Positions 44,268 to 60,846 are shown, counted from the first letter of the stretch. The stretch: DNA of 64,000 nucleotides from an uncultured Candidatus Saccharibacteria bacterium (GCA_964398815.1 CAYNNZ010000002.1:207-64206); one strand, 5' to 3'. The notes: generated by a model not told the origin, from the letters alone. A program made the numbers and translations.

Positions 44268-44276
44268 GTAGATGCC

Positions 44277-44528
44277 TTATTTCTTTGCCTTAGCGGCGCG
44301 CTGCTTGAAGCGCTCCACGCGACCCGTCTTGTCGAGGGTACGGTCTTCGCCCGTGTAGAACGGGTGCGATGCGCTCGAGATTTCTACGACGTACTTGTCG
44401 TACTCCTTACCCTCAAAAGTCGCCTTTTCAGTGGTGCGGATGGTGGAGCCGATAAGGTAACGCTCCCCCGAGGACATGTCCTCGAAGAGTACGGTGCGAT
44501 AGTCGGCCGGGTGCGTGTCCTTTTTCAT
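44277..44528 (-). CDS. rpmE: 50S ribosomal protein L31 (type B, non-zinc)
   Basis: MKKDTHPADYRTVLF...SSASHPFYTG matches bL31. Confidence 0.85.
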   Translation of the reverse strand: MKKDTHPADYRTVLFEDMSSGERYLIGSTIRTTEKATFEGKEYDKYVVEISSASHPFYTGEDRTLDKTGRVERFKQRAAKAKK

Positions 44529-44689: not shown

Positions 44690-46036
44690 TTATCCGCCCA
44701 AGGTGTCGATATCTGACTGATACTGAGCCGCAAAATCCATCACGCTATTGGCATAGGCCTGACCGGCCGTAGCCCAATTCCCTCCTGCATAGTATTTCGC
44801 AGCTGCGGTGTGTTCCGCGTTATAGGAGCCACCGGCACCCCCTACGGCCGAGAGGTAGAGACCCGTCGCGGTAATGGCATGGAGCGGATTCCATGGGTCG
44901 GCCGCTGAAATACCCAACGCCTTCTCTATTTGCGGCTTAAGTCCAATCCACGTGGATGGGATGAACTGAGTCGGACCCATGGCGCCACCATATCCATTCC
45001 CCTGAGGACAGGAGACGGCCGTTGTTTTCCAGTCGCGCCCGAGGTCATCCATGATGGTCTTGAACGGGACGGTGTCGCGCGGCGACTTCATGACCCCTGT
45101 CGCTGCGTTTGAGTTTCCTGTTCCAAAGCCGGTCGCGAGGTCGGTCACATAGCACCTGCCCACGTTCGAACCGAGATTCGACTCCTGTCGCAAAATGGCA
45201 AGAATGAATGCCGCCCGCACTCCGGTAATACGTGATGAGGTCTTTGCGTATTCAATAGCGGTTGGGAGCGGTATCTGACCGCCACCACCTGCAAGTGCGA
45301 ACAATTCCGAACGAATCTGCGCGGCAGTCTTCTGCTTCGTCGCAACAATCTGCTGATACAGATTCTCCTGTCCCTTGGTAGCAGTGAGTAGCTGCTGCTT
45401 AGCATTCTGTTGATCCTGAACTTTCTTCTTTGCCTCCAGCTGCAGCTGCGCCACCTGCTGCTGCTGCTTACGCTGCTCTTCCAGCTCATCCTTTTCCGCC
45501 TCAGCCTGCAACTTCGTGCCAGTAATGACTTCATAGGAATCCCCAAGCGACTGCTTCACGAATGCGTACGAGTCGAGGTCCCCGAACAACTTGCTGATGT
45601 CGTCTGCAGAAAACGCGAGCTCGACGAGAGACATATTGTCGATTTCTTCGGTACGGCGAAGTATCTGCGCAAGCGACTCTTTCTCGTTCGAGAGCTTGGT
45701 TGAGAGCGACGTGATGGTCCTCTGATGTACGGAAATATTCGAATCAATCTGCTTGATGGCGACCTGAGTGGCCTGCACCTGCAGCTGCGCCTTCTTGATC
45801 TGTGCATTCAGTGTCGCAACCTCGGTCGAAAGCGACTTACCCTGCGAAGCAAGCTTGTCGACCATCGCCTGGTTCTCAGCGATTTCAGACTCGAGCTGGT
45901 TCAACTGGCTCTGCAGCTGCGCGCGCCGGTCGTCGGTCGACTGCGCGAACAGCACATGCGGCAGGACTGCACCTGCGGTAAGCGCAATGATGAGAATGCC
46001 TACGAATAGGGCTGGTAGAGAGAACCTGAGGCGCAT
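44690..46036 (-). CDS. secreted coiled-coil protein with C-terminal lytic transglycosylase (MltB/SLT_2-like) domain, paralog 1
   Basis: Signal/TM. About 230 aa of Gln/Glu-rich coiled coil. C-terminal LRQESNLG...GGAMGPTQFIPSTW...YYAGG. About 75-80% identical to 56549..57907. Confidence 0.7.
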   Translation of the reverse strand: MRLRFSLPALFVGILIIALTAGAVLPHVLFAQSTDDRRAQLQSQLNQLESEIAENQAMVDKLASQGKSLSTEVATLNAQIKKAQLQVQATQVAIKQIDSNISVHQRTITSLSTKLSNEKESLAQILRRTEEIDNMSLVELAFSADDISKLFGDLDSYAFVKQSLGDSYEVITGTKLQAEAEKDELEEQRKQQQQVAQLQLEAKKKVQDQQNAKQQLLTATKGQENLYQQIVATKQKTAAQIRSELFALAGGGGQIPLPTAIEYAKTSSRITGVRAAFILAILRQESNLGSNVGRCYVTDLATGFGTGNSNAATGVMKSPRDTVPFKTIMDDLGRDWKTTAVSCPQGNGYGGAMGPTQFIPSTWIGLKPQIEKALGISAADPWNPLHAITATGLYLSAVGGAGGSYNAEHTAAAKYYAGGNWATAGQAYANSVMDFAAQYQSDIDTLGG

Positions 46037-46059
46037 ATCTTGTATATTCTAGCAGACGT

Positions 46060-46096
46060 AAAAAGAGCCGATTCCTTGCAGAATCGGCTCTTTTTA
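46060..46096 (-). terminator. Rho-independent terminator downstream of rplY copy 1
   Basis: aaaaagagccgattc-cttgcag-aatcggctcttttt. Confidence 0.5.
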
Positions 46097-46130
46097 TCTA
46101 CCTGGGCGCCTGAAGACGCAGAAATATTTT

Positions 46131-46220
46131 GGATGCGAGGCGCGGGAAATTTCTGAGCGCAGGCGTATTCCGTATACGACGGAGCGAGGAAATGGGTCCC
46201 GCAACAACGCAGACAGGATG
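46131..46220 (+). repeat. structured intergenic repeat, copy E (absent from the paralogous locus at 57908-57986)
   Basis: GAUGCGAGGCGCGGG...GCGUAUUCCGUAUACGACGGAGCGAG...GGGUCCCGCAACAACGCAGAC. Track ORF 46129 reads through it. Confidence 0.55.
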
Positions 46221-46221
46221 T

Positions 46222-46866
46222 TTATGCGTCTTCCGTAGACTCTTCAGTCTCCTTGCCCTTACCTTCGACTTCGATACTATCCATATCCGGAGCAGCAGAA
46301 TCCTCCTCCTTCTCTTCCTCAATAGCCTGAGCAAGTGCGACTACCTCCTCGCCATCCACCTTCACAGTGACGCCTGCAGGAATCTTGAGGTCTGACACGC
46401 GGATTTGGTCACCCTCAGCAGCAAGTGCCGACATGTCGACTTCAATCTCGTGCGGAAGGTTAGCGGGGTCTGCCTCGATTTCGAGTTCATGCATAACCTT
46501 CACAATATTCATGCCGAGCTTAACGGCCGGAGCCTCACCGATGAATGAGAGCGGCACCGCGACCTCGACTTTCGCGCCCTTCTCGATTGCGTAGAGGTCC
46601 GCATGACGCGGGAGATTCGTGACTGGGTCAAAATCAACGTCATGAATGAGCACCTGCATGTCAGCACCGAGTCCGGTGAGCGAAATGACGGAAGACTCAC
46701 CTGCGTCGCGGAGAATCTTCTTAAATTCTCCTGCCTCGAGCGAAATGGAGGTTGCGTCCTGCTTCGGTCCATAAACAACCGCAGGAATACGGCCTACTGC
46801 GGCAAGTGCGCGTCCAGCTTCCTTACCGGTCGCCTCGCGCGTCTGTGCGTTCAAAGTAATAGTCAT
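46222..46866 (-). CDS. rplY: 50S ribosomal protein L25 / general stress protein Ctc, copy 1
   Basis: MTITLNAQTREATGKEAGRALAAVGRIPAVVYG... plus an acidic tail. Paralog at 57987..58631. Confidence 0.85.
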   Translation of the reverse strand: MTITLNAQTREATGKEAGRALAAVGRIPAVVYGPKQDATSISLEAGEFKKILRDAGESSVISLTGLGADMQVLIHDVDFDPVTNLPRHADLYAIEKGAKVEVAVPLSFIGEAPAVKLGMNIVKVMHELEIEADPANLPHEIEVDMSALAAEGDQIRVSDLKIPAGVTVKVDGEEVVALAQAIEEEKEEDSAAPDMDSIEVEGKGKETEESTEDA

Positions 46867-46920
46867 ATAGAGGTATGTAGTACCTGCCGAGTATGCCGGA
46901 AATAGGCCGTTCTGGCAATA

Positions 46921-47919
46921 TTAGCCCACCAGTGCCTCCGAAACGGTCTTTAGCCGAGCCAGGAATGCCTCCCGAGCCTTCCCCACGTTCTCCTTCTTCC
47001 CCTTCCATATAAGGAGAGCTTCTTCTTGGAGGGCACGAGCGAAACTGAAGGTAAGCGGCCATGGCGCATTTCGCTCCTTCGCGAGTTTTGCTATTGCGCG
47101 CAGGTTTTCGGTCGCCTGGTCGGGCGTCTGACCACCTGATAGGAAGACGATGCCTGCAAGTCCGCGCGGCACGATATCCATGAGAACTGAAACCGTGTCT
47201 TCCGCCACCTCCTCAGGGGTATCGGTCCGGCCGCTCTCATGACCAGAAAGCACCATGGCGGTCTTGAGAATGACGCCTGACGGGTCCACTGCATTATCGG
47301 CAAGTGCCTCGAATACGGTCTTGAGCGTTGCCTCGAGTACGGCCTTGGCGCGGACACGACTATGCGTTCCTGCGTACATGACCTCCGGCTCGATGATGGG
47401 AACCATGCCGACTTCCTGCACATCGCGCGCGTAAATAGCGAGGCGGCGTGCATTCTCCACAAGCGCCTGTGCTGTCGGCAGCGTATCTCCTTCGATGGTC
47501 ACGACCGCGCGCCATTTCGTGAAGCCAGTTTCGTATTCCTTCCGGAATCCTATAAGTCGGTCACAGAGACCTATGACCCCCTTGGTTATAAGTTCGTTCG
47601 GGCTTTCCGGAAACGGTTCCGTTCCCTCATCCACCTTAATGCCTGGAGTGATGCCACGGGCCGCAAGTGATTTTGAAAATAACTTCTTATCGCTTCCCTT
47701 CTGGTTCAACTGTTCGGAGAACAGAATGACGCCGGAGAGATACTGCTCGACACCCGGTGCCGTGAGGTAGAGGTCGTGGAATTGCCTGCGCATCTCCTCG
47801 CCCTGCTCGATGCCATGGTCGGCGAGCCGTTTGTCGGCAGTGTGCGTGCTTTCGTCGGCAGCCAGAATGCCTTTCCCGGGAGCAAACAACGATTCAGCGA
47901 TAGTGGAGAGGTCAGTCAT
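46921..47919 (-). CDS. fba: fructose-bisphosphate aldolase class I, copy 1
   Basis: GKGILAADESTHT Schiff-base-region motif and IVFLSGGQ. Paralog at 58686..59684. Confidence 0.85.
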   Translation of the reverse strand: MTDLSTIAESLFAPGKGILAADESTHTADKRLADHGIEQGEEMRRQFHDLYLTAPGVEQYLSGVILFSEQLNQKGSDKKLFSKSLAARGITPGIKVDEGTEPFPESPNELITKGVIGLCDRLIGFRKEYETGFTKWRAVVTIEGDTLPTAQALVENARRLAIYARDVQEVGMVPIIEPEVMYAGTHSRVRAKAVLEATLKTVFEALADNAVDPSGVILKTAMVLSGHESGRTDTPEEVAEDTVSVLMDIVPRGLAGIVFLSGGQTPDQATENLRAIAKLAKERNAPWPLTFSFARALQEEALLIWKGKKENVGKAREAFLARLKTVSEALVG

Positions 47920-47938
47920 ACACTCGAGTATAGCGCGC

Positions 47939-50900
47939 CTAGAACTCGACGATGTTCGGGAGCACGTTCACCACGACCTTCTTCTTCGTGCCGCCACAAT
48001 CGATTTCATACGTGCGCTGCGTCGTGATGTTCGTGATGGTGACGGTATTTGATGCAGAGCTCGTGATTTGACACTGCGCGTCCGAGACGGTCGTGGTGCG
48101 TGTGTTTACGCTCGTACCGCCTACATCCACTCCGTTTACCGTACAGGTCTGCCCTGCCGTCTCGCCTGTAACACTCCACGCTACCGTTACGCTTCCGCCT
48201 GAGGTGACGTGCGTCGGAGTCGCGGTAATGGTCTGCGTAAGTGGGTCGGAGCAGGTGTTTGCCTCGCCTGCGATAGTGACTGGCGAACAGGTGAATGGTC
48301 CTGCCGATTGCGTCCCGTTGGTTGCTGATACGGTTGGTGCGTAGTTACCCGGAGCCGCAAACTGCGACGTGAACGCGCTGCTTGCACCCGATCCTGATGC
48401 AGGTGTGCCGCCCGTAACATTCCAAGTGTATGAGGCCGGGGACGGTGAGAAGCCGGTTACTGTTGCTGTCCAGGTCACATCCACATTTGGAGCAGCAGCT
48501 GAAGGAGATGGTGTACACGAGCTGATAGTAGGTACCGCAGGAGCTGATACAGCAATCGCCGTCCATGCACCACAGTTATCATTCTCATCAGACTCTGTGA
48601 TGATTCCTAGATTCGATCCACTACTCTTATCCGCACACACACGCAGATACTTAGTGGTGCCTCCATCACCGGCTGGGAAGGTGTACGAGATGCTGGTCGG
48701 TGCAGTGCCTCCTGAAAGCATTACGCCAAGTGCGCTCACTCCAACATCGGATGCCCCACCTCCTGAAGCATCATTCGCCTTCTGGAGAAGTGTCGCGAAG
48801 CCAGCGCCGGTCGAAGCAGCGCCATTATTGGTTACGGTTGCCGAATATGAAGCTGAGGAGCCGGTGGTTGCTGATGTTGGAGAAACACTTCCCGTAGTGA
48901 GGTTAGGCTGTGCGGTAGCTACGGTTACAGCCGTCCAAGCACCACAGTTGTTTGCCTCGTCGCTCTCGGTGATAGCTCCTACGAATGAGGTGTTGTTATC
49001 AGCACAGATGCGCGTGTACCAGGTGCCCGCCGTTCCCATGGTGTACGTGTAGTAGGCCGTTCGACTCGATCCATTTGCTATTGCGGCGGTCGTGGTAGCA
49101 AACGATGCGGTGACACTCGTGTGATCAACATCATTATCGAACTGGAAGAGAGTGTTGAAGGTAGCTCCGGTTGGTGCTGTTCCCCCGTTTGTGACGGTGC
49201 CCGAGAAGACGGTACTTACCGACGTTGAGACCGTGGTCGGTACGACGGTGCCTGCAGTGAGATCTGGCTGTGCAGCAGAGCCAACGGTGACCGCAGTCCA
49301 AGCACCACAGTTGTTTGCCTCGTCGCTTTCTGTAATAACGCCCGTACCTGCCGTTGACTGCTTGTCAGCACAGACACGAACATATTTTGTAGTACCTCCA
49401 TCACCTGCTGGGAAGGTGTAGCTCAATTGAGCATTGGTAGTATTGCTGCCTCCCGTATTACTGAGTGTTGCGTTTGCATAGGTACCAATATCAGTCGCTC
49501 CGGTACCAGAAGCATCGTTTGCCTTCTGGAAGAGGTCAGTAAACGCTGCTCCTGTGGAAGCCGTACCTCCGTTCGTAACGGTAGCCTGAAGGGTTACGGC
49601 ACTACCCGCTGTCGCGGCTGTTGGGGTTACCGCTCCCGTGGTGAGATCAGGTAGTGGTGTAGTCACCGTAACGGTTCCTCCGTCGGACGTTCCGCCATTG
49701 CCGTCAGCATTGAGCGAACAAGCAATTGCGCCCGTATTCTGCGCACCACTCGTTACCGTCACCGTAGCAGTCTTTGCACCTGAGGAGACGTAGCTCTTCA
49801 CGACTGACACTGTTGAGCCAGTAAGACTATCTGTTCCGCTCCAACTATAGGTGTAGCTACCCGTACCTCCAGACGGATATGCCGTCCAGGTAACGTTCTG
49901 ACCGGTGTTTATGCTGGTCGGAAGTGCAGAACACGTAACTGCGAGTACGTTGTATACCGTAACCGCTGTCCATGGGGCACAGTTATCTCCCTCATTACTT
50001 TCAGTAATAGTGCCGACAAATGACGAGTTGTTATCCGCACAAGCACGCACATACCACGTACCCGCAGATGGGAACGCGTAACTCACACTTGCTGCATTGT
50101 TAGCGCCTGCTGCAAGGGTGGCATTACTGTGTGTACCGATAACGGTTGCACCCGTACCCGAGGAATCGGTTGCGCGCTGGAAGACGTTCGTGAAGCCGGC
50201 ACCGGTAGTTGCACCTCCTGTGTTTGTGACCGTGGCGCCAATGGTTGCCGCTACTCCTGCGACCGGATTAGTTGGGGTGGCGGTCATTGAACCGGCGGTG
50301 AGGTTTGGCTGAGGTGCGGCAGTCACCGTAACTGTTTGCCAAGCGCTACAGTTGTTCGCTTCATTCGATTCCGTAATACTTCCGACACTACTCGTGTTGA
50401 GATCGGCACAGGCACGCACCTGATAGCTACCCGTTGAGGTGAAGGTGTAATTCGCAGAGATTGCTGCGTTACCACTCGCGACAAGAGCCGTAATGGTGTT
50501 AGCGGCCACGTTGGTGACACCCGAGATCTGAATGGTGTTTGAGAAGGTTCCGCCGGCTGTCGCTGCTCCAGGGTTAGAAACGGTCGCAGTGAGATTGAGC
50601 GCTACATTCTGTGTTGCGGACGTCTGACCTATGAGGCTCGCGGTAAGGTCCGGCTGCGGAAGTGCATCAAGGGTAACAGCAGTCCAGGCACCACAGTTGT
50701 TCGCTTCGTTACTCTCTGTGATAGCGCTTGTAGAGTCAGCACACACTCGAAGGTACTTCGTGGTGCCAGCATCACCTGCTGGGAAGGTGTACGAGATATT
50801 GGTATTTGAGGAGGCACCGTTTGCGAGCGTTCCCATAGCCGCTGTCGCAATATCCGTTGCACCCGTACCAGACGCATCTGTTGCCTTCTGAGCTTTGTTA

Positions 50901-52525
50901 GTAAAGCCAGCACCCGTTGAAGCTGTTCCCCCGTTAGTGACTGAAGCAACAATACTTACCGCGACACCTGTTGCGGTTGAAGCGGGTGACGTAACACTTC
51001 CGGTAGAGAGATCTGGCTGTGGAGGAGCAGCTACCGTAACGGTGGTCCAGGCACCACAGTTGTTCGCTTCGTTACTCTCGGTGACGGCAGAAGCACCATC
51101 GGCACAGAGGCGAACCTGGTAGGTTCCGGCACTTGGATACGTAACGTTTGCTGAGGTTGAGTTAGATCCGGACGCCGCAACCGTAATGGAGTTGGTGGTA
51201 TAACTCGAACCACCCTGCACCTCTATCGTAGAAGTGAAGTTGCTGGCCGCCGTACCACCACCGTTTGAGACGGTTCCAGACGTTGATACTGCCTGCCCCG
51301 CTGTTGCTGTGGTTGGCGAGATAGTACCTGCAGTGAGATCAGCAGGAGCTGCAGCAATCGTTACCGAGTAGGTAGTCCAACCTGAACTTGAACTATTCGA
51401 ATCTTGCGCGAGCGCACGGAAGGTCTTCGTGCCGACCGTTGCCCAACTGTAGTCTTGCGTACGGCTTGTTCCGCTACTTACGTATCCTGAGGCAGGGAGC
51501 CATTGATCAACGGCACCATCGAAGTCCCAGTCGATACCGTAACGGAGCTGATCATTATCTGGGTCAGTACTTACAAAGGAGTAGGTATACGAAGTACTTG
51601 GAAGACCAGTAGTAGGTCCACCAATAGTAGGTGCGGTTGGTGGATTATTCGGGACCACCGCAGTAAGCGGATAGTTAACCGTGAATGCTGGAATGTTCAC
51701 CTGCTTACCTGGGCGTATTTGAACTGCGTGCTGTGAGGGATGATAACTATCTTCTTGCGGTCCATTGGCAAGCGGGTAGTTGTTTCCAACACAGGTGCCG
51801 CCGCTCGGAGCTCCACCGTATCGGTAGTAGAAATAGCCGTACGACGTGCCGAAATTAAAGTTAGGAGCGAGAGCACCGGTTGATGTAACCGTACAGGTTG
51901 CTATCAATGAACCGTCTCCCTGCGCAGTAAGCGCACCACAGGAAAGACCGGATAGGTTAGAGAGGGCTCGTGTTGGCGGTGTAAGACTGAGAGGGACGAA
52001 CTGATCGAAGTATCGCTCGCCACCAGAGTCGCTCTCATGTGCGCTCGAAGTGTAGTCCTTGTAATCACAAGTTGCTGCCTGCGGTGGCGCACCACCAGCG
52101 ATCCAGTCTCCGTAAGGTGAGTCCACCACACCACCGGTTCCAAACCAGAAGATGTTTTGATAGACATACGGGTTGAACTTGAGATCGATCGTCTGACCTA
52201 CAGACACCGTACCGTTCTGCGCGATAGAGGAGCCTGAATTATGGTCAAGGACGAATACGTCATACCCCACCGTGATGTTGGGGTTCGAAAGGGCGTTTTC
52301 ATATCCAGCTACATATGGTCCTCCCCAGTCCCATGCGTAATAGAAGTCTCCAGTGATCTGAACAGACTGCGTGTAGTGACCGGTTACGGGCAAGTTTGTG
52401 GGAGCAGTCGCGGTGATGTAGATAATCGAGACCGGTGGGATGTCACCGCCAGCAAGAACCCCAAAAGGGATAGTAAGCACCAGGAGGGCAAGAATGCGGG
52501 CGAGATCTAGAAGGTAAGGACGCAT
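47939..52525 (-). CDS. giant secreted protein (~1528 aa) with PKD-like and more than 10 CARDB-like tandem domains
   Basis: Signal peptide MRPYLLDLARILALLVLTIPFGVLA (start at the internal Met 4 nt after the upstream gene's stop). Repeats end in the (I)TESNEANNCGAWTAVTV CARDB signature. IDWDFDGAVD is a PKD-like motif. Confidence 0.8.
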   Translation of the reverse strand: MRPYLLDLARILALLVLTIPFGVLAGGDIPPVSIIYITATAPTNLPVTGHYTQSVQITGDFYYAWDWGGPYVAGYENALSNPNITVGYDVFVLDHNSGSSIAQNGTVSVGQTIDLKFNPYVYQNIFWFGTGGVVDSPYGDWIAGGAPPQAATCDYKDYTSSAHESDSGGERYFDQFVPLSLTPPTRALSNLSGLSCGALTAQGDGSLIATCTVTSTGALAPNFNFGTSYGYFYYRYGGAPSGGTCVGNNYPLANGPQEDSYHPSQHAVQIRPGKQVNIPAFTVNYPLTAVVPNNPPTAPTIGGPTTGLPSTSYTYSFVSTDPDNDQLRYGIDWDFDGAVDQWLPASGYVSSGTSRTQDYSWATVGTKTFRALAQDSNSSSSGWTTYSVTIAAAPADLTAGTISPTTATAGQAVSTSGTVSNGGGTAASNFTSTIEVQGGSSYTTNSITVAASGSNSTSANVTYPSAGTYQVRLCADGASAVTESNEANNCGAWTTVTVAAPPQPDLSTGSVTSPASTATGVAVSIVASVTNGGTASTGAGFTNKAQKATDASGTGATDIATAAMGTLANGASSNTNISYTFPAGDAGTTKYLRVCADSTSAITESNEANNCGAWTAVTLDALPQPDLTASLIGQTSATQNVALNLTATVSNPGAATAGGTFSNTIQISGVTNVAANTITALVASGNAAISANYTFTSTGSYQVRACADLNTSSVGSITESNEANNCSAWQTVTVTAAPQPNLTAGSMTATPTNPVAGVAATIGATVTNTGGATTGAGFTNVFQRATDSSGTGATVIGTHSNATLAAGANNAASVSYAFPSAGTWYVRACADNNSSFVGTITESNEGDNCAPWTAVTVYNVLAVTCSALPTSINTGQNVTWTAYPSGGTGSYTYSWSGTDSLTGSTVSVVKSYVSSGAKTATVTVTSGAQNTGAIACSLNADGNGGTSDGGTVTVTTPLPDLTTGAVTPTAATAGSAVTLQATVTNGGTASTGAAFTDLFQKANDASGTGATDIGTYANATLSNTGGSNTTNAQLSYTFPAGDGGTTKYVRVCADKQSTAGTGVITESDEANNCGAWTAVTVGSAAQPDLTAGTVVPTTVSTSVSTVFSGTVTNGGTAPTGATFNTLFQFDNDVDHTSVTASFATTTAAIANGSSRTAYYTYTMGTAGTWYTRICADNNTSFVGAITESDEANNCGAWTAVTVATAQPNLTTGSVSPTSATTGSSASYSATVTNNGAASTGAGFATLLQKANDASGGGASDVGVSALGVMLSGGTAPTSISYTFPAGDGGTTKYLRVCADKSSGSNLGIITESDENDNCGAWTAIAVSAPAVPTISSCTPSPSAAAPNVDVTWTATVTGFSPSPASYTWNVTGGTPASGSGASSAFTSQFAAPGNYAPTVSATNGTQSAGPFTCSPVTIAGEANTCSDPLTQTITATPTHVTSGGSVTVAWSVTGETAGQTCTVNGVDVGGTSVNTRTTTVSDAQCQITSSASNTVTITNITTQRTYEIDCGGTKKKVVVNVLPNIVEF

Positions 52526-52529
52526 ACGG

Positions 52530-53954
52530 TTATAGCGATGAAGGTGGTACGAGTGGCGTTGGCACATGCGGTTTAGGGCGCGTGCGCAGATACACGAGCA
52601 CAACAATTCCAATGAGCAGTAAGGCCGTCACTCCATATATACCAATCGCCATGAGTGATGGTGCCTGGCAGGCTCCACCGAGCTGACTGCAACGATATGG
52701 GATCGTTATCTTATCAATGGTCTTTCCATTCTGGGAGACCTTAGCCACCAAGTCGAAAGAAGTGAGTCCTGCCTTAGCAACGGGCATGGTAAGCGCCACA
52801 ATTTGGGACGGTGCGACTCCTTCATATACTTGATGTGAAAGCGGAATACCAATCAATCCGAAGAAGAGCGGTTCCTTCATCCACACATCGACGCGGGTAC
52901 CGGCAGCTTCTCCGAGACCTGCGTCATGGAAGCAGGCGAATGCTTTCGACTCAGCGGTGGTGGGATACTCAGTAACATTCAGTGAGTTGATGCGGGGAGT
53001 ATCGATTCCACGTCGTGCAAATCGAATGCCCACTATTGATTTCGATCCTGCGGGTGTCTTGAGTTCCCCAACGAGGTAGTACACCGAGTGACTTGTATCA
53101 GTAAGCGCATAAGAGACAGATGCTTTTGTTCCGGCTCCCACTTCAACACGTTCTGTTTTCTGATCAATGAGGTGGTCCTCACGAATACCATCCCAGTAAT
53201 AGAGTTTCCAGTGGACCTCTCCTGAATAATTCTGAACACCTGTGTTCTCTACATCTATCTTTATCGCTGTCTCCTTAAGATCAGGTGGCAAGGTCTGGGG
53301 AAATGCTGCGAAGTAGTAAGGGTGGTCGTTTATGGTCGCAGTTCCTTTGTCGAATCGAGTTGGGCCTGCACTGTCACCTATCACCTTGAACTGATAGAAG
53401 CCGCCAGTGACGTCGTCTGTGAATGAGAGGCCGAGGAAATTAAAGCGATCCTTTTGAGTAACGTACGCTGCCATTCGATACTGTCCGGGTGCCGCATCTG
53501 CAGGAACATTCCATGTAAACTGAAGTGGCAGTGTTTCCCCTGCTTTGAGATTCACGTGCTCGAGCACGGGGAAGAAGTCAACAATGTCTGGACCGTTCAC
53601 GTCCTTTTCTACGCTGCGCTGACGCATCACCTTTACATACACCGTCGCATCGACGATCGGATACTTGTTCTGATTCGTTACGCTTCCCGAGACTGCAAAC
53701 GGGACACCAATAGAGACAGAAGCAAGTTCTGCAGTGAGCACCACCGGTGTTGAACCGAATGTGTAATAGAGGAAGCAGCTATCGAGGTTGGTATCGGTGC
53801 GCACTACTGCATTTTGCGCAGTTGGTGCCTTGGTTTTATCAAAGGTTTCAAATCCTGCTTGAGCAGATACGGTCGTTGGACCGAGAAGAAGCGCGAGTAC
53901 GAGCGGAATAATGAACGAGGTACGAACAAAGGTAGACGCAGTTGGACGACTCAT
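52530..53954 (-). CDS. hypothetical cell-surface protein (474 aa) with signal peptide and C-terminal TM anchor
   Basis: N-terminal signal VLALLLGPTTVSAQA. C-terminal TM LMAIGIYGVTALLLIGIVVLVYLRTRPKP. Immediately upstream of, and co-oriented with, the CARDB giant gene. Confidence 0.6.
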   Translation of the reverse strand: MSRPTASTFVRTSFIIPLVLALLLGPTTVSAQAGFETFDKTKAPTAQNAVVRTDTNLDSCFLYYTFGSTPVVLTAELASVSIGVPFAVSGSVTNQNKYPIVDATVYVKVMRQRSVEKDVNGPDIVDFFPVLEHVNLKAGETLPLQFTWNVPADAAPGQYRMAAYVTQKDRFNFLGLSFTDDVTGGFYQFKVIGDSAGPTRFDKGTATINDHPYYFAAFPQTLPPDLKETAIKIDVENTGVQNYSGEVHWKLYYWDGIREDHLIDQKTERVEVGAGTKASVSYALTDTSHSVYYLVGELKTPAGSKSIVGIRFARRGIDTPRINSLNVTEYPTTAESKAFACFHDAGLGEAAGTRVDVWMKEPLFFGLIGIPLSHQVYEGVAPSQIVALTMPVAKAGLTSFDLVAKVSQNGKTIDKITIPYRCSQLGGACQAPSLMAIGIYGVTALLLIGIVVLVYLRTRPKPHVPTPLVPPSSL

Positions 53955-54036
53955 AGATGAAGTATAGCAGTCGTGCGCTTCGAGCTAGGTACCTGTTCAC
54001 AGCACCAGAACCTCGAATGCTACACTGCCAGAAGGT

Positions 54037-55500
54037 ATGAAAGTAGCCCATATTCTTCTCCTACTTGCGTCCCTAGCGACTGCCATCGGGATGGTGTTCC
54101 CGATATGCTGGACTCTTTCCATTCTCGGACTGGCCGTCTTTTTCTACCTCATACTCGACCGAATACCTTCCGTCCTCCAAGCGGGATGGTATGGACTCTT
54201 CTTTGGGGTGGTGACCGGTGGTGCAGGCATCCTATGGTTCTGGGACGCATATCCCCTCACCTTCCTCGGTATTACGAACTCCACCATTGGTCTCGTTATG
54301 GTTGGACTTACCTGGCTCTACGTCTCGGTGAGTCTTGGTGTTGCCGTCGCATTCTTCTCGATCGGTGTGTGGTATCTGCGCACGTGGATGTGGACACCTC
54401 TTTTAATTCCGGTGCTGTGGATGATTACTGAGGAAGCACGTATGTGGGGATACACCTTTTTTACATACGGCCCAGGCTCACTCATAGGTGCACATTTCTC
54501 TCCCTCTTCGATCGGATATCTTCTTAGTGAAAATTCGTACCTTCTCCAGCTTGCGTTTCCGTTTGGGCTTCTCGCACTCAACACCGCTGCAGCACTCATC
54601 GCAGTTGCGCTCATGGTTCTGTATCGATCAACGACTCGCGTCGTGCGCTCGGTAATTTTTGCCGCACTACTGGTGGTACTGTTGCTTCCGCTCGCTACGA
54701 CGTATCGAGACACCGGTGAAGCGCAAACGCTCATTCGCGTTGCAGTGGTAGGAACTGATGGACCTGCAGACAATCCAACACTCGGGTCCGCTCAGGCACG
54801 AGAATTGTTGAAAGCTAGTGCTGAAGATCACGCCATCGAACTTATTGTGCTTCCTGAAGTGTTGGGGTTCACTCGTATGTTTGGTAACTACGAAACAGGA
54901 TTAGAAACCATTCGCTCCTGGTTCGGTACTCGAGACGTACTTGTCGCTTCGAGTGAAAAAGTTCCGGCGGGTGATGGGTTTGTTGAGCAGCTGGTATACA
55001 CGAGTACGCAGTCAGGACGAGTAAGTGAGTACACTAAAATGCTACTGATACCGCTCGGTGAATATACTCCCTCCTTCTCTACCGTTCTGTACGCTCTCAT
55101 CACGGACGAGGGCGTGCGTGCGTATTTCAATAACTTGCATTCGTATGGATTGTCGGCGGGTACCGAAGTTACACCGGTGACGTACAACCATGTCACCATT
55201 GGAGGACTCTTGTGCTCTGATCTGTTGTCGCCGCAGCTCTACCACACCCTGGTGAAGCGTGATCATTCGAAACTGCTCATCAGTCTTTCCAATCAGTACT
55301 GGTTCCATGGATCGCATATCTTGTTTGATAAGACCCTTCAAATGGCCCGCGTCCGAGCTGTACAGGATCATGTACCGTTAGTTCTCGCCAATAACGCCGC
55401 GCCCTCTTTTATCCTCGACCCTACAGGTAGGGTTATGCGGCAGTCACACTGGCATACGCCTGAGGTCTTAGTGCACGAAGTACCTATTACTCTTCCGTAG
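54037..55500 (+). CDS. lnt: apolipoprotein N-acyltransferase-like protein (polytopic membrane domain + C-terminal CN-hydrolase/nitrilase domain)
   Basis: At least 6 N-terminal TM helices, then a nitrilase-type domain (IRVAVVGTDG...ELIVLPE...LLCSDLL). Confidence 0.6.
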   Translation: MKVAHILLLLASLATAIGMVFPICWTLSILGLAVFFYLILDRIPSVLQAGWYGLFFGVVTGGAGILWFWDAYPLTFLGITNSTIGLVMVGLTWLYVSVSLGVAVAFFSIGVWYLRTWMWTPLLIPVLWMITEEARMWGYTFFTYGPGSLIGAHFSPSSIGYLLSENSYLLQLAFPFGLLALNTAAALIAVALMVLYRSTTRVVRSVIFAALLVVLLLPLATTYRDTGEAQTLIRVAVVGTDGPADNPTLGSAQARELLKASAEDHAIELIVLPEVLGFTRMFGNYETGLETIRSWFGTRDVLVASSEKVPAGDGFVEQLVYTSTQSGRVSEYTKMLLIPLGEYTPSFSTVLYALITDEGVRAYFNNLHSYGLSAGTEVTPVTYNHVTIGGLLCSDLLSPQLYHTLVKRDHSKLLISLSNQYWFHGSHILFDKTLQMARVRAVQDHVPLVLANNAAPSFILDPTGRVMRQSHWHTPEVLVHEVPITLP

Positions 55501-55502
55501 AT

Positions 55503-56552
55503 ATGGACCGGCCTCCCTTCTTCCGTATTGCATTCATTCTGCTTATCTTGGGAGGTGTGTTGCTGGCCGTGCCGTACCTATTTCCTCATGACCGTCCACT
55601 TGAAGTAACCATCTCCACCAAACCCTTAGCGGTTCTTCCTGAGCATTCACATGATTTAGGTGAAGCAGAGGGTGATGATGGTCACGGAGTCTACGCATAC
55701 TCAGAAAGTGTCGTGGTGCCAGAAGATATGTGGGTCACCACCATCGAGGCGCATATGAAAAATGCTCCCGACTCTACCATTCACCATTTCATTTTGAAGG
55801 AAATGGGTGCGACCGATCCTGCATGTCCAAACTCTAGTGGCCGCACGCTATTCCTATTTGGACGCGACACCCGTTCACCGCAGCATTTCGGTGCCGCTCC
55901 CTACGGCATTTTTATTCCAAAAGGAACACCACTCGCGCTTGTGGCAATGATTCATAATCCGCACCCTCCCGAAGGCGTCGGTGGGACATACAAAGACGTG
56001 TCTGCAGTCATGACCGTGCGCGGCGTTGCTTCTGGTGGTTCGCGCACAAAGCCTTTGTCCATACGATTCCTAGTACTTTCTGACACGTCCTACTGCAATG
56101 ATTCGCCAGAAGCAAACACGTTTAGTATCCCTGCACTACGTAAGGAATACGTACAACAAAGTACTACGCTACAAGGAATTAATCGCGGGTCCCTTACCTT
56201 TGATGGAGATGCGACCCTGCTTGGCTTTGGCGGACATATTCATGCGTGGGAGGGCGGCAATGCGCTTGCGGTATATCTCAATAATAATTTGCTCCAGCTC
56301 ATCACGCCCCATCAAGCAGGAGCGGAACCCTGGTCATGGAAAACAGCTCCCGTAGATCGAGCGGTGCCGATGAAGAAAGGTGACACTATTTCACTTACGG
56401 CTACGTACGAAAATCCGAATGTAGTACCCACTCGCGGAGCCATGGGAATTGTGGGCTTAATATTCTGGCAACCTTCAAAGGAAGCGGAGTTGCTTGCGCC
56501 GTACAAGCAGACTACTGCCACCACCACTCTGGATCGGTACGGAACGTTCTAA
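55503..56552 (+). CDS. hypothetical membrane-anchored protein (349 aa)
   Basis: N-terminal TM FRIAFILLILGGVLLAV. No family assigned. Its 3' end overlaps the convergent LT paralog by 4 nt. Confidence 0.5.
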   Translation: MDRPPFFRIAFILLILGGVLLAVPYLFPHDRPLEVTISTKPLAVLPEHSHDLGEAEGDDGHGVYAYSESVVVPEDMWVTTIEAHMKNAPDSTIHHFILKEMGATDPACPNSSGRTLFLFGRDTRSPQHFGAAPYGIFIPKGTPLALVAMIHNPHPPEGVGGTYKDVSAVMTVRGVASGGSRTKPLSIRFLVLSDTSYCNDSPEANTFSIPALRKEYVQQSTTLQGINRGSLTFDGDATLLGFGGHIHAWEGGNALAVYLNNNLLQLITPHQAGAEPWSWKTAPVDRAVPMKKGDTISLTATYENPNVVPTRGAMGIVGLIFWQPSKEAELLAPYKQTTATTTLDRYGTF

Positions 56553-57907
56553 CCGCCCGCTAGTGTATCGATATCGTTCTGGAAGGTAGAGGCCTTATCC
56601 ATCACACTGTTTGCATATGCTTGGCCTGAAGATGCCCATGCACCGCCAGCGTAGTACTTAGCAGCTGCCGTATGCTCTGCGGCGTAGTTTCCACCTCCCC
56701 CACCTACAGCTCCAAGATAGAGGCCTGTTGCAACAATGGCGTGGAGTGGATTCCATGGGTCCGTTGCGGCGACCCCAAGTGCACTCTTAATGCGTGATTC
56801 GAAGGAGAGCCAAGTTGAAGGAATGAACTGGGTTGGACCCATTGCGCCGCCGTAGCCGCCGGGCTGCGGACAGGAGACTGGCGTAGTGGACCAGTCGCGA
56901 CCAAGTGCATCCATGATTGCTTTAAACGGAACGGTGTCGCGTGGCACCTTCATGATTCCTGAGAATGGTGTTCCGGTGTTCTTTCCCTTTCCGTCTCCCG
57001 TCGTAAGGTCGGTAACCAAACACTGGCCAACGTTTGCACCGAGATCTGTTTCCTGCGAAAGAATGGCGAGAATGAACGCTGCGCGTACGCCCGTGATGCG
57101 TGAAGCGGTCTTTGCGTACTCAATAGCAGTTGGAAGCGGAATCTTTCCAGCACCTCCGGCGAGTCCGAAGAGCTCTGCACGAATCTGACCCGCAGTCTTT
57201 TGTTTCGTCGCAACAATCTGCTGATACTTACTCTCCTCTCCCTTGGTAACCCTTAGGAGATCCTGCTTCGCTTGCTGTTGCTGTTGTACCTTCGCCTTAG
57301 CAGCCAGTTGTAGTTGCGCTACGTCCTGCTGTTGTTTGCGCTGTGCTTCGAGTGCAGACTTTTCACTTTCCGTTTGTAGTTTAGTACCCGTGATCTCTTC
57401 GTATGAATCCCCGAGTGCTTGCTTCACGAACACGTATGAGTCGAGATCACCGAGTAGTGTTGAAATATCTTCTGCGGAGAATGCAAGTTCAACGAGTGAC
57501 ATGGTGTCAATCTCATTGGTACGTCTTAAAATTTGTGCAAGAGACTCTTTCTCATTTTGTAGCTTCTCCGAAAGCGTACTGATGGTGCGCTGATGCACGG
57601 TGATATTGGAATCGAGTTGTTTGATAGCTACCTGCGTCGCCTGCACCTGGAGCTGCGCTTTTTTAATTTGCGCATTGAGCGTCGTCACTTCACTAGAAAG
57701 AGATTTACCCTGTGCGGAAAGTTTTTCGACCACTGCCTGGTTTTCTGCAATCTCTTTCTCGAGCTGATTCAGCTCATTCTGAAGTTGAGTGCGCCGCTCG
57801 TCAGAGATGCTCTGAGCGAAAATGAGGTGAGGAACTACCGCTCCCGCCAGCAAAACGAGAGACGTGAGGAGTACTGCGAGCGCACCGAGAGAAAACCGCA
57901 AACGCAT
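56549..57907 (-). CDS. secreted coiled-coil lytic transglycosylase-like protein, paralog 2
   Basis: Collinear paralog of 44690..46036 (MRLRFSL... N-terminus, same ES / GAMGPTQFIPSTW / YYAGG motifs). Confidence 0.7.
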   Translation of the reverse strand: MRLRFSLGALAVLLTSLVLLAGAVVPHLIFAQSISDERRTQLQNELNQLEKEIAENQAVVEKLSAQGKSLSSEVTTLNAQIKKAQLQVQATQVAIKQLDSNITVHQRTISTLSEKLQNEKESLAQILRRTNEIDTMSLVELAFSAEDISTLLGDLDSYVFVKQALGDSYEEITGTKLQTESEKSALEAQRKQQQDVAQLQLAAKAKVQQQQQAKQDLLRVTKGEESKYQQIVATKQKTAGQIRAELFGLAGGAGKIPLPTAIEYAKTASRITGVRAAFILAILSQETDLGANVGQCLVTDLTTGDGKGKNTGTPFSGIMKVPRDTVPFKAIMDALGRDWSTTPVSCPQPGGYGGAMGPTQFIPSTWLSFESRIKSALGVAATDPWNPLHAIVATGLYLGAVGGGGGNYAAEHTAAAKYYAGGAWASSGQAYANSVMDKASTFQNDIDTLAGG

Positions 57908-57934
57908 ACTATTGTTTCAAGTATATCAGACGGA

Positions 57935-57969
57935 CAAAGCGCCGATCTCTTTCGAAATCGGCGCTTTGT
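57935..57969 (-). terminator. Rho-independent terminator downstream of rplY copy 2
   Basis: caaagcgccgat-ctctttcgaa-atcggcgctttg. Confidence 0.5.
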
Positions 57970-57986
57970 GACGCACAAAAGGGGTT

Positions 57987-58631
57987 TTATTCAGCTTCTG
58001 CTGCGCCCTCTTCCTCACTCTTACCCTTACCTTCGACTTCAATAGCGTCCATATCTGGAGCTGCTGAGTCTTCTTCCTTCTCTTCCTCAATAGCCTGCGT
58101 GAGGGCAACGACTTCTTCGCCATCTGCCTTAACGGTAACCCCAGCTGGGATCTTAAGGTCAGATACGTGGATCTGGTCACCAAGCTCTGCGAGACCGGAA
58201 ATATCAACCTCGATGTGCTGTGGAAGATTTGCTGCGTCAGCTTCGATATCGAGCTCATGCATAACCTTAACAAGGTTTGCGCCCGCCTTAACCGCTGGTG
58301 ACTCACCGGTAAACTCAAGAGGTACGGCAATTTCAACCTTTGCACCCTTCTCGATAGCGTAGAGGTCGGCATGACGAGGGATGCTGGTTACGGGATCGTA
58401 GTCAACATCATGGATAAGAACCTGGAGGTCCTTACCAATACCCGCGAGGGCGAGCACAGACGACTCACCCGCATCACGGAGAATCTTTTTGAACTCAGCG
58501 AGCTCAAGGGAAATGGTGGTCGACTCCTGCTTTGGTCCGTAGACCACCGCTGGAATACGGCCTTCTGCGGAAAGAGAGCGGCCGGCGTGCTTGCCGGTCT
58601 CGGTTCGGGTTTGTGCGTTTAGCGTAAACAT
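57987..58631 (-). CDS. rplY: 50S ribosomal protein L25 / Ctc, copy 2
   Basis: MFTLNAQTRTETGKHAGRSLSAEGRIPAVVYG... Start at the internal Met of the track ORF, aligned to copy 1. Confidence 0.8.
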   Translation of the reverse strand: MFTLNAQTRTETGKHAGRSLSAEGRIPAVVYGPKQESTTISLELAEFKKILRDAGESSVLALAGIGKDLQVLIHDVDYDPVTSIPRHADLYAIEKGAKVEIAVPLEFTGESPAVKAGANLVKVMHELDIEADAANLPQHIEVDISGLAELGDQIHVSDLKIPAGVTVKADGEEVVALTQAIEEEKEEDSAAPDMDAIEVEGKGKSEEEGAAEAE

Positions 58632-58685
58632 ATATAGGTAGTGATACCTGGCGAGTATGCCTGAAAAGCCCCTGAATGGCAAGAA

Positions 58686-59684
58686 CTAGGCCGTAAGTGC
58701 CTCAGATACCTTCTGTAAACGCTCGAGAAAGACTGCGCGGGCTGCCTCTACGTTCTTAGGCTGTCCCTTCCAGGTGTTGAGAGCTTCTTCTTGTACCGCG
58801 CGGGCGAAGGAGAAAGTGATGGGCCAAGGGGCTCCTTTGGACTTTGCCACCTTTGCAATTGCCCGGAGATTCTCAGTTGCCTGGTCCGGCCCCTGTCCTC
58901 CCGATAGAAATACGATACCGGCAAGACTGGCGGGGACCGTCTCCATGAGCGCGGCAACCGTATCCTCGGCCACTTCTTCTGGAGTATCCATACGTCCACT
59001 CTCACGTCCTGAGAGTGCCATCGCAGTTTTAAGAACGGTACCCGAGAGGTCTACCGCATGATCGTTCATCGCTGCAAAGACACTCTGCATGGTTGCTTCG
59101 ATAACCGTCCTGGCACGTACACGACTATGTGTGCCTGAATACATAACTTCAGGTTCGATAATAGGCACCATTGATACTTCCTGAGCATCACGCGCATAGA
59201 CGGCAAGACGACGCGAGTTTTCGACAAGGGCTTGCGCTGTTGGAAGTCTATCGCCTTCAATCGTTACCACCGCACGCCACTTTGTGAAGCCGGTATTGTA
59301 GTCCTGATTGTATCCACTCAATCGATCACATAGTCCGAGCACTCCTTTGGTAATGAGCTCATCGGGGCTCTCTGGAAAGGGCTCAGTTCCTTCATCTACT
59401 TTGACGCCAGGAATGATACCTCTCTCCGAGAGAGAGACGGAGAACAGCTTCTTGTCACTTCCCTTCTGTGGAAGCTGTTCAGTATTGAGAATCGCTCCAG
59501 AAAGATATTGTTCAACGCCTGGAGCCGTTAAGTAGAGGTCATGGAACTTACGACGCATCTCTTCGGATGTCTCGATGCCATGATCGATAAGACGTTTATC
59601 TGCGGTGTGGGAACTTTCGTCAGCGGCCAATAACCCTTTTCCCGGGGCAAAGAGGCGCGCTGCTACTGCTGAAAGATCGGTCAT
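58686..59684 (-). CDS. fba: fructose-bisphosphate aldolase class I, copy 2
   Basis: MTDLSAVAARLFAPGKGLLAADESSHT... Start at the internal Met aligned to copy 1. Confidence 0.85.
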   Translation of the reverse strand: MTDLSAVAARLFAPGKGLLAADESSHTADKRLIDHGIETSEEMRRKFHDLYLTAPGVEQYLSGAILNTEQLPQKGSDKKLFSVSLSERGIIPGVKVDEGTEPFPESPDELITKGVLGLCDRLSGYNQDYNTGFTKWRAVVTIEGDRLPTAQALVENSRRLAVYARDAQEVSMVPIIEPEVMYSGTHSRVRARTVIEATMQSVFAAMNDHAVDLSGTVLKTAMALSGRESGRMDTPEEVAEDTVAALMETVPASLAGIVFLSGGQGPDQATENLRAIAKVAKSKGAPWPITFSFARAVQEEALNTWKGQPKNVEAARAVFLERLQKVSEALTA

Positions 59685-59708
59685 ACCCGTATGGTAGCAT
59701 GGCCGCAT

Positions 59709-60704
59709 ATGGCTCAATTGGATTTTCTCGCTGTTGGCGACATCGTTACGGAACCCTTTATCAAACTAAAGGATGCGCAGCTACACTGCACCATTAATAC
59801 GGACACCTGTGAGATTTGTATGCGTTTTGGAGACAAGATCCCCTACGAAAGCGCGACGGTATGCGTTGCCGTAGGTAACGCTGCAAATGCTGCGGTCTCT
59901 GCTGCTCGTCTAGGACTCTCATCGGCACTTCGTGCGTATGTCGGGGATGACGAATACGGTCCTCCCTGTATTGCACAGCTAGAAAAAGAGGGTGTGTCAA
60001 CGGAATTTATGGTTACTGAACCAGGTAAACATTCCAACTATCACTATGTGCTGTGGTACGAAAACGACCGCACCATTCTCGTGAAGCACGAAGACTTTAC
60101 GTACACGGTTCCCGAGATTACTGAAGCACCCAAGTGGCTCTACCTCTCGTCCCTTGCTGACAAGTCCCTCCCGTATCATCAAGCGTGGCTCACCTGGTTG
60201 AATGAACATCCAGAAACAAAGCTTGTATTCCAGCCCGGTACGTTCCAGATGAAGCTTGGTGTTGAAGCACTCAAGGGTCTCTACGAGCGAAGCGAAGTAT
60301 ATGTGGTTAACCGTGACGAAGCTGCTCGTATTCTTGGTACTGATCGAGATGATGTTAAAGGACTACTCGATGGTCTTCATGCACTTGGTCCAAAGATAGT
60401 GATTGTCACTGATAACACTAATGGCGCGTACGCGTCGGACGGCACCCAACAGGTACATGTTCCTATGTATCCCGACCAACCAGCAGCGTTCGAGCGCACA
60501 GGTGCAGGTGACGCCTTTGCATCCACCTTTGCGAGTGCACTAGCTCTCGGAAAGACCTTCGAAGAAGCGCTTCTGTGGTCGCCTATTAACTCCATGTCAG
60601 TAGTGCAGCAGGTAGGAGCACAACAGGGTCTTCTCTCGCGTGAAGCGCTCGAAGCATTTCTTGCCAAAGCACCGCCCCACTACCGCATCGAGCCAATATC
60701 GTAG
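59709..60704 (+). CDS. PfkB-family carbohydrate kinase (ribokinase/fructokinase-like)
   Basis: N-terminal FLAVGDIV...; C-terminal TGAGDAFASTFASAL (PfkB signature 2). An alternative start at 59691 is possible. Confidence 0.75.
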   Translation: MAQLDFLAVGDIVTEPFIKLKDAQLHCTINTDTCEICMRFGDKIPYESATVCVAVGNAANAAVSAARLGLSSALRAYVGDDEYGPPCIAQLEKEGVSTEFMVTEPGKHSNYHYVLWYENDRTILVKHEDFTYTVPEITEAPKWLYLSSLADKSLPYHQAWLTWLNEHPETKLVFQPGTFQMKLGVEALKGLYERSEVYVVNRDEAARILGTDRDDVKGLLDGLHALGPKIVIVTDNTNGAYASDGTQQVHVPMYPDQPAAFERTGAGDAFASTFASALALGKTFEEALLWSPINSMSVVQQVGAQQGLLSREALEAFLAKAPPHYRIEPIS

Positions 60705-60846
60705 GCGCTCGCGCTTGCAAACGTTGCAAACGGAACTTCTATAGCAATGTGCAATATGAAAAGAGCGGCAAGACTGCTCACAATAGTCACAATCAACATC
60801 CCAACATAGGTGTTTACCTCAATGTTTCGTGATCGAATGTTTGGCT

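Follow-up and report, generated by a model that had tools for sequence, protein, structure and literature searches.

A diverged second copy of an fba-rplY-transglycosylase block beside a base-composition breakpoint in a Paceibacteria-like bacterium

Several processes are known by which a bacterial chromosome can come to carry two versions of the same genes. Tandem segmental duplications arise by RecA-dependent unequal crossing-over between direct repeats such as rrn or insertion sequence (IS) copies, and fresh tandem duplications are identical and unstable. Second versions of ribosomal protein genes occur as alternative paralogs, among them the zinc-independent copies of L31, L33 and S14 and the pairing of bL25 with Ctc. 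For naturally competent bacteria, de Vries and Wackernagel are said to have described in 2002 how homologous and homology-facilitated illegitimate recombination insert foreign DNA. A genome can also hold xenologous, or 'pseudo-paralogous', copies acquired by transfer from relatives (for xenolog classes, see PMC5860392; Treangen and Rocha 2011 is cited as ref. 73 in PMC12455944). Among 125 Patescibacteria genomes, 89 paralogs were counted in 118,635 genes, and no transferred gene was paralogous to a resident gene (PMC12455944). Here we describe a stretch of 64,000 nucleotides (nt) from an uncultured Candidatus Saccharibacteria bacterium (GCA_964398815.1, CAYNNZ010000002.1:207-64206; hereafter the window) in which a block of three housekeeping genes, fba, rplY and a transglycosylase-like gene, is present twice.

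The doubled genes encode a lytic transglycosylase-like protein (TG), a ribosomal protein bL25 of the Ctc type and a class I fructose-bisphosphate aldolase (FBA), and all six lie on the minus strand in identical order. Copy 1, also called the b copy, comprises TG1 (44690-46036), L25_1 (46222-46866) and fba1 (46921-47919), the latter two assigned by Pfam. Copy 2, the a copy, comprises TG2 (56549-57907), L25_2 (57987-58631; 214 amino acids (aa) from the ATG at 58631) and fba2 (58686-59684; 332 aa from the ATG at 59684). These two start codons are those found in public contigs; positions 59717 and 58682 mark how far the longest open reading frames (ORFs) extend and are not the real starts of fba2 and L25_2. 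Pairwise protein identity is 75% for TG (340 of 451 aligned positions; lengths 448 and 452 aa), 80% for bL25 and 78% for FBA, which agrees with the first-pass annotation of collinear paralogs sharing about 75-85% of their residues. The DNA alignment of the blocks covers 3,138 bases, of which 69.2% are identical (range, 69-71%), and the homology spans from near the fba start codon to the TG stop codon. The copies are well diverged rather than near-identical, as the annotation had asked to be checked: the longest identical run is 24 nt, and no 60-nt window reaches 88% identity.

None of the contigs seen has a disrupted copy of any of the six genes. By exact-protein look-ups we obtained ten contigs that cross the junction between fba1 and the adjoining CARDB/PKD surface-protein gene (47939-52525, minus strand; 1528 aa per public contigs) at 99.2-100% identity, comprising WANG18-1 scaffolds from two biosamples, and contigs from two MEGAHIT (k141) assemblies, three JGI metagenomes and three Logan assemblies. 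Eight of the ten also extend across 48.1-48.5 kb, the interval in which composition changes (see below), and no alternative neighbour of fba1 was seen. In addition, no 25-mer is shared by the two block copies, and the window contains no N. This combination makes a mis-join or a false duplication very unlikely. From these sequences, we regard it as settled that the two-copy locus is genuine in the natural population of a Paceibacteria-like ultra-small bacterium (Patescibacteria, or candidate phyla radiation (CPR)).

The two copies reside in DNA of different composition. GC content is 57.3% over positions 1-48450 and 51.6% over 48451-64000, with only 55% over the last 8 kb ahead of the switch, compared with the 58-60% and 50-52% previously estimated by eye. 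In 2-kb windows the fall seems smooth, an effect of the very high GC at second codon positions (GC2) in the CARDB gene. By contrast with that gradual look, GC at third codon positions (GC3) is 0.52-0.80 for all genes up to 47919 and 0.40-0.53 for all genes beyond it, and the second copy does indeed lie in the lower-GC region with the CARDB gene and the pentose-phosphate genes. The maximum-likelihood single change point in GC3 falls at 48269 (support interval 48101-48461; 0.671 to 0.489; twice the log-likelihood difference (2dlnL) = 498), and the tetranucleotide signature switches at the same point. The drop that had been placed at about 47.9 kb is real and sharp, but its boundary lies about 0.2-0.5 kb inside the 3' end of the CARDB gene, within its last ~170 codons, and not in the 19-nt spacer that separates CARDB from fba. 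Homology breaks in this part of the gene as well: below ~48.49 kb the window is 79-92% identical to a related species that we call B, whereas above this position the two CARDB genes are unalignable. The composition shift marks a recombination breakpoint inside a conserved gene, and not an assembly seam.

Copy 1 shares its high-GC3 signature ('H') with the 48 kb to its left, whereas copy 2 carries the lower-GC3 signature ('L'), with block GC3 values of 0.62 and 0.50, respectively. At codons where the two copies specify the same amino acid, GC-ending choices favour copy 1 by 235:116 (p = 2e-10), and the same comparison in species B favours copy b by 242:118 (p = 6e-11). The H side of the window holds rpoB, rpoC and gyrB, and both domains contain core genes. 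The L domain continues past the end of the window for at least 4 kb, and probably for 10 kb, into a giant repeat gene. In both the window and species B the tract has the deviant composition and mappable boundaries expected of horizontally acquired DNA. It is not a classical integrative island: the genes of 47.9-64 kb encode no integrase or transposase Pfam domains, the sole tRNA lies at 40.8 kb, and no repeats flank the tract.

We compared the locus with five longer contigs of related metagenome-assembled genomes and with about 50 metagenome loci (L035-L086). A metagenome scan with the TG catalytic domain yielded 52 loci, whereas a scan with full-length TG picked up coiled-coil patterns and confirmed none. 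Representative genome contigs, among which the window species is not included, gave only one distant relative (L018, 61%). The common gene order, with strands given relative to the block, is (Lnt)-gapdh-rpiB-rpe-tktN-tktC-pfkB(-)-fba-L25-TG-[0-6 kb variable region]-L31-prf-rpsB-tsf...GT2(-), and a second fba-L25-TG block was present in none of more than 30 informative related loci. Judged by this order, the window joins an ancestral left context at copy 2 with an ancestral right context at copy 1. The former consists of pfkB (plus strand), a split transketolase gene, rpe and rpiB (59691-63951), all with low GC3 in the window strain; the latter consists of L31 (44277-44528), an RF-1-type release factor gene, rpsB and tsf (41747-44528, minus strand), all with high GC3. 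The order tktC-pfkB(-)-fba-L25-TG...L31-prf-rpsB-tsf...GT2(-), in which a ribosomal protein gene sits with genes for a secreted coiled-coil transglycosylase and a glycolytic enzyme, is kept across a broad range of Paceibacteria-like genomes, down to ~40% TG identity.

The variable region after TG often holds a cassette composed of a '3xx-aa' protein gene and a gene for a CARDB-like surface protein, and the location of this cassette differs among relatives. It lies between TG and L31 in L033, L030 and L018, which are single-copy loci of what we call type I order (TG-3xx aa-CARDB-L31), and between prf and rpsB in L034, L032 and L028. In L032 and L028 it also lies between pfkB and fba, with a CARDB-like gene directly upstream of fba. 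L032 (GCA_009712145.1) carries two CARDB-like paralogs (6549-8150 and 15913-17532) that are 98.9% identical over 351 aa and form direct repeats on either side of its single fba-L25-TG-L31-prf block; L028 has three such paralogs (440, 467 and 472 aa). An IS200/IS605-type Y1 transposase gene (PF01797) occupies positions 1625-2290 of L032, between rpe and tktN.

Species B (L025, L026 and L027, from two independent assemblies and Logan) has the same two-copy layout as the window, in the order pfkB-fba_a-L25_a-TG_a-337aa-CARDB(1709 aa)-fba_b-L25_b-TG_b. The DNA of its copy b and of the final ~550 nt of CARDB is 79-92% identical to the copy 1 region of the window, and that of its copy a is only 74-80% identical to copy 2. 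Here the L signature forms a bounded island of ~5.8 kb (about 8.1-13.9 kb of L025), with one edge in the first ~100 codons of pfkB, the other near codon 490 of CARDB, in its N-terminal third, and fba_a, L25_a, TG_a and the 337-aa gene in between. Both flanks are of H type, with GC3 values of 0.57-0.65 for the pentose-phosphate pathway genes and 0.58-0.65 for copy b, and with the H tetranucleotide signature. Over the divergent starts of pfkB and fba_a, ~80 nt are near 100% identical between the window species (A) and B against a background of ~75% (window 59600-59700 versus L025 8140-8250). This stretch may have served to anchor recombination, or it may be a divergent promoter region common to both species.

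Three further genes lie between the two blocks of the window. Gene X (52530-53954, minus strand; 474 aa) has no Pfam match and low GC3; an Lnt-like CN_hydrolase gene (54037-55500, plus strand; 487 aa) also has low GC3; and gene Y (55503-56552, plus strand; 349 aa), again without a Pfam match, converges on TG2 with a 4-nt overlap. A third species, C (L031), has the order L25-TG-Y(-)-Lnt(-)-X-CARDB, which matches the a side of the window. Its gene X homolog, in the same position, is 69% identical in amino acid sequence, and its proteins group with the a copies.

Divergence is unequal between the two sets of orthologs. The b copies of A and B are 99/93/99% identical at the amino acid level, with nonsynonymous divergence (dN) of 0.004-0.04, synonymous divergence (dS) of 0.5-0.8 and dN/dS of 0.005-0.06; for example, L25_1 is 93% identical to its B ortholog with a dN/dS of 0.06, and FBA copy 1 is 99% identical with a dN/dS of 0.005. 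The a copies are 84/84/86% identical, with dN of about 0.10, dS of 1.0-2.4 and dN/dS of 0.05-0.09. Between a and b of the same genome, amino acid identity is 76-78% and dN is 0.15-0.18, and dS is saturated such that dN/dS is not computable. Values below 0.1 between species show strong purifying selection on both blocks, as estimated from these coding sequences, although for the a copy most of the signal may predate import. A search for gene conversion between the copies found no trace of it, which together with the saturated dS indicates that the two-copy state is old.

Neighbour-joining (NJ) trees with relatives, in line with the phylogeny of both L25 and FBA copies that the annotation had advised, gave the topology ((A1,Bb),(A2,Ba)) with bootstrap values of 94% for the concatenate and 100% for fba alone; the next sister group is formed by the single-copy L028 and L032. 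A search of 5.8 billion proteins with FBA2 returned the a lineage at 83-84%, the b lineage at 78%, the unplaced P0125 at 77% and all else at 74% or less. On the evidence of these sequences, no lineage is closer to a than b or closer to b than a, but the split within the a pair is at least twice as deep as that within the b pair. A tree of TG only places copy b with L030 (86%), which we attribute to a shared loop variant (see below) and not to history.

Recombination is also ongoing within the population. Nine Logan contigs, drawn from several runs, represent a variant of the window species, genotype D (L087/L088). Between the giant gene and gapdh, and once more between the 3' end of TG and CARDB, this genotype matches the window at 94-100% identity, whereas a 5.3-kb patch from rpiB to the 5' half of L25_a (window 58600-63700) is only 65-80% identical. 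A further divergent patch of ~0.5 kb lies inside TG2. The window and strains L001 and L002 are separated by 3 differences over 43-57.9 kb, but by 5-8% just left of 42.9 kb (tsf and the 3' end of rpsB) and by 6-7% over 37.5-40.8 kb (the pheS-GT2-231aa region), which marks a strain-level recombination boundary. Mosaic TG proteins known only from Logan (P0004, P0010 and P0016) may stem from chimeric contigs and were not used alone, and P0010 is backed by genotype D. Most of the gene transfers detected in Patescibacteria are between Patescibacteria, and many of these organisms keep recombination and competence genes (PMC12455944).

The reading we prefer, at about even confidence, is that the pfkB-side copy (a) is a xenolog from a lower-GC sister lineage, brought in by recombination anchored in pfkB and in the CARDB cassette. 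We infer the direction of import, the gene order of the donor and the crossover mechanism as follows. Copies a and b would have diverged in separate sister lineages before joining one genome. The H-type ancestor of A and B would have had an L032-like order, pfkB-...-CARDB-fba-L25-TG-L31, and would have recombined with DNA from a lower-GC sister donor with the order pfkB-fba-L25-TG-cassette-CARDB. One crossover might have fallen in pfkB or further left, in the pentose-phosphate genes, and the other in the conserved C-terminal module of CARDB. Because the cassette would precede the block in one parent and follow it in the other, a double crossover between such non-collinear parents could add a second block without replacing the first. 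Both supposed parental orders occur among single-copy relatives, type I in L033, L030 and L018 and a CARDB-like gene next to fba on its upstream side in L032 and L028. Afterwards, the a side would have been overwritten repeatedly by divergent relatives, such that A, B and D now differ there.

A laterally acquired block from a relative, one of the origins that the first-pass annotation had listed, is the best-supported explanation of the composition shift, given that GC3 and tetranucleotide signals agree, the island of species B is bounded and strains show divergent patches. For the locus as a whole, import seems to us the most economical account, although our confidence in it is evenly balanced. 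Several observations weigh against it. No single-copy genome of the a lineage, and hence no donor, was found; the sole candidate, species C, ends inside CARDB, and its a-type genes have GC3 values of 0.56-0.59, so a-type DNA is not always low in GC3. The far edge of the L block in the window strain, a block also put at 20-26 kb or more past the window end, was not reached, as contigs end in the giant repeat gene. The trees are NJ only, and that of TG is distorted by the shared loop variant. Finally, if the block had been duplicated within the genome of the A/B ancestor, a and b would be expected to group as sisters just the same.

Such a duplication is the most serious competitor, and we consider it a possible though less favoured history. 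Unequal crossing-over between flanking direct CARDB-like repeats would have produced a tandem duplication in the A/B ancestor, to be followed by differential loss of neighbours and by allelic replacement from lower-GC relatives. The blocks are collinear, directly oriented and mutual closest lineages in both the 5.8-billion-protein search and the NJ trees, as is typical of segmental duplication, and a two-copy state common to two species with the topology obtained is predicted equally well. Moreover, single-copy L032 holds the needed substrate in its CARDB-like direct repeats flanking the block. The inter-copy arrangement of the window, Lnt(-)-X(+)-CARDB(+), likewise mirrors Lnt(-)-322(+)-539(+) downstream of prf in L032, but this correspondence was tested and rejected, because the window Lnt and X are not orthologous to the L032 genes (26% identity and no hit, respectively). 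The copies also fail the expectations for a recent duplication, namely host composition and equal ortholog divergence, since GC3 is 0.62 versus 0.50 (p about 1e-10) and dS between A and B is unequal. The GC3 and tetranucleotide island demands an extra layer of recombination, with donors carrying low-GC3 b-type genes, of which none are in the databases. The at least 2-fold deeper dS of the a pair, and its ~3- to 25-fold higher dN (by gene), must be explained in addition, and initially identical copies must have escaped conversion or loss for genus-scale time in a streamlined genome. The ancient duplication raised in the annotation might be the origin of the two-copy state, but alone it fails on unequal composition and unequal ortholog divergence. 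In particular, the bounded L island of species B and the deeper a orthologs defeat a purely vertical version, whereas the sister relationship of a and b fits import and duplication alike.

We consider the reverse polarity improbable. According to this proposal, the window strain is natively L-type, and an H block of at least 48 kb with copy 1 and rpoBC was imported. The missing far edge of the L block in the window and the presence of core genes in both domains are compatible with this polarity. However, H-type DNA borders the small L island on both sides in species B, the acquisition of 20-30 kb is more plausible than that of at least 48 kb with rpoB, rpoC and gyrB, and the b copy keeps the CARDB-fba adjacency of the nearest single-copy relatives. 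An assembly or binning artefact, whether the chimeric join suspected in the annotation or a falsely duplicated collapsed repeat, is very improbable indeed: although some samples contain both species A and B, the identical junction recurs in ten contigs from different studies and assemblers with no other context for fba1, the copies are 69% identical with no common 25-mer, the window is free of N, and two independent assemblies of species B show the same architecture. One Logan contig (L012, SRR28282210) passes from 100% B to 100% A inside L25_a and was considered as a natural A/B recombinant; both species are in the samples, and it was treated as possibly chimeric and left unused.

Both L25 genes encode full-length bL25 of the Ctc form, with matches to PF01386 (N-terminal L25p domain) and PF14693 (TL5 C-terminal domain) of 72.0 and 78.9 bits for copy 1 and 71.4 and 90.5 bits for copy 2 (cutoffs, 23.6 and 27). 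Class I aldolase (PF00274) is matched over its full length in both FBA copies (337.7 and 323.4 bits; cutoff, 22.2), and pairwise alignment shows that the motifs LKT/PxM, ADES, KVDxG and EPEV are identical in the two. We take LKT/PxM to be the context of the Schiff-base lysine, and the other three motifs presumably have catalytic roles. By score and motifs, both genes are thus predicted to encode members of the class I fructose-bisphosphate aldolase family.

The TG proteins carry a signal or transmembrane segment, a long coiled coil and a C-terminal MltB/SltB-like domain (GC3 is 0.655 for TG1 and 0.506 for TG2). Their matches to the Pfam family SLT_2 are borderline, at 29.4 bits for TG2, above the gathering cutoff of 24.3, and 22.1 bits for TG1, below it, and a PDB sequence search detected only the coiled coil and not the catalytic domain. 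An AlphaFold (AF2) model of TG1 built on 68 homologs gives the C-terminal domain a pLDDT (predicted local distance difference test) of 85-95. Its top PDB matches by Foldseek are Slt35 (1LTM), SltB1 and SltB3 (probability 1.0; E-values 1e-3 to 1e-2; about 155 aligned columns), and the modelled N-terminal hairpin resembles the coiled coils of EnvC and RipA. Residues Q284 and E285 are invariant in the 68 homologs. The model therefore points to a family 3 lytic transglycosylase (MltB/SltB) fold with the catalytic glutamate in a Q-E-S/T motif.

A loop beside the catalytic Q-E motif (window 45040-45150 in TG1 and 56910-57030 in TG2) occurs in two forms, TG(F/V)GTGN(S/A)xAAxG with PQG(N/T)GYGG and TGDGKGKNTGTPFSG with PQPGGYGG. 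TG1 has the variant GFGTGNSNAATG / PQGNGYGG, whereas TG2 has GDGKGKNTGTPFSG / PQPGGYGG, which is typical of the TG family. Both forms recur across several lineages regardless of relatedness (including P0018-P0020 and L035), and the window has one of each. Outside its own cluster no relative of TG1 exceeds 78%, and the catalytic half of TG1 is ~10 points farther from outgroups than that of TG2 because of the variant loop. This loop difference is the sole hint of functional divergence that the sequences offer between the blocks.

Each L25 gene is preceded by a sigma-70-like promoter, TTGCCA-17-CATACT (46890-46918 for L25_1 and 58654-58682 for L25_2, both minus strand), and a short leader, or 5' untranslated region. 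The same motif is kept in single-copy relatives and is thus the ancestral L25 regulatory sequence. This promoter and leader make up the intergenic motif that the annotation had noted upstream of both rplY genes, which is present at both, exactly at copy 2 but with 3 mismatches at copy 1. An Rfam scan of the window found no ribosomal leader, and tRNA-Thr was its sole match. With promoters, start sites and catalytic motifs kept, both copies look functional at the sequence level. The spacer between L25_1 and TG1 (46037-46221, minus strand) is 106 nt longer than its copy 2 counterpart (185 versus 79 nt) and contains a hairpin with a T-run after it. Two exact copies of a 33-bp sequence, which is GAGCGCAGGCGTATTCCGTATACGACGGAGCGAG-like and holds the palindrome CGTATACG, lie in direct orientation at 38784-38816 and 46156-46188. 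One is in this spacer and the other 7.4 kb away upstream of the GT2 gene, both intergenic; the repeat could be a small inserted element or an operator common to the two regions.

It is tempting to suppose that selection keeps both blocks as specialised modules, each with its own bL25/Ctc, class I aldolase and secreted coiled-coil transglycosylase, and that the locus beside the hypervariable CARDB cassette acts as a recombination hotspot. We regard this proposal, drawn from the sequence patterns, as doubtful. If true, it would mean that an episymbiont exchanges alleles for its cell envelope or for host interaction with relatives only ~70% identical in DNA.

Two repetitive features lie elsewhere in the window. 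A second giant ORF (26677-31443) encodes 1588 aa with a GC2 of 0.61 and high GC3, and has internal repeats of 65-70% identity at 29.3-31.0 kb. A tandem repeat with a 99-nt period (81-88% identity) occupies 34339-34695, within a 403-aa ORF (33517-34728).

The processes considered here, namely xenologous paralogs, recombination-driven mosaicism and duplications at repeated genes, are all known. Paralogs are reported to be extremely rare in Patescibacteria, however, and the doubled fba-rplY-transglycosylase block is an unusual exception. It is also unusual that a ribosomal protein gene belongs to the doubled unit and that the recombining tracts are so divergent. The locus displays mosaic evolution at base-pair resolution, in which tracts of only 65-80% identity to the resident DNA have replaced or added housekeeping genes, including one for a ribosomal protein. 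A duplication accompanied by a GC drop in a metagenome contig can thus be real biology and not a mis-join. This matters in practice, because checks based on single-copy markers would count bL25 twice and could flag such genomes as contaminated, and composition-based binning could split the contig.

The locus shares features with each of the known systems introduced above. As with alternative ribosomal protein paralogs, a second, diverged and intact ribosomal protein gene is present, but both copies here are full-length and Ctc-type with the same promoter motif, and show no sign of condition-specific regulation. Direct orientation, a repeated CARDB-like family at the junction and a junction inside a gene recall tandem segmental duplication, whereas 69% identity, saturated dS, the composition gap and the unequal depths of orthologs do not. 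Homology-facilitated insertion is matched by the lack of integrase, transposase or tRNA edges, by breakpoints in pfkB and CARDB and by the mosaic patches of strains. In this case, however, the donors would be only 65-80% DNA-identical, far below the usual efficiency range. Xenologous copies are resembled in that two diverged homologs, whose divergence appears to predate their co-residence, occur in one genome and one of them has a foreign composition. The present example differs from these in that mobile-element genes are absent, that the donor would be a sister lineage, and that the unit doubled beside its counterpart is an entire block of three housekeeping genes, one of them for a ribosomal protein.

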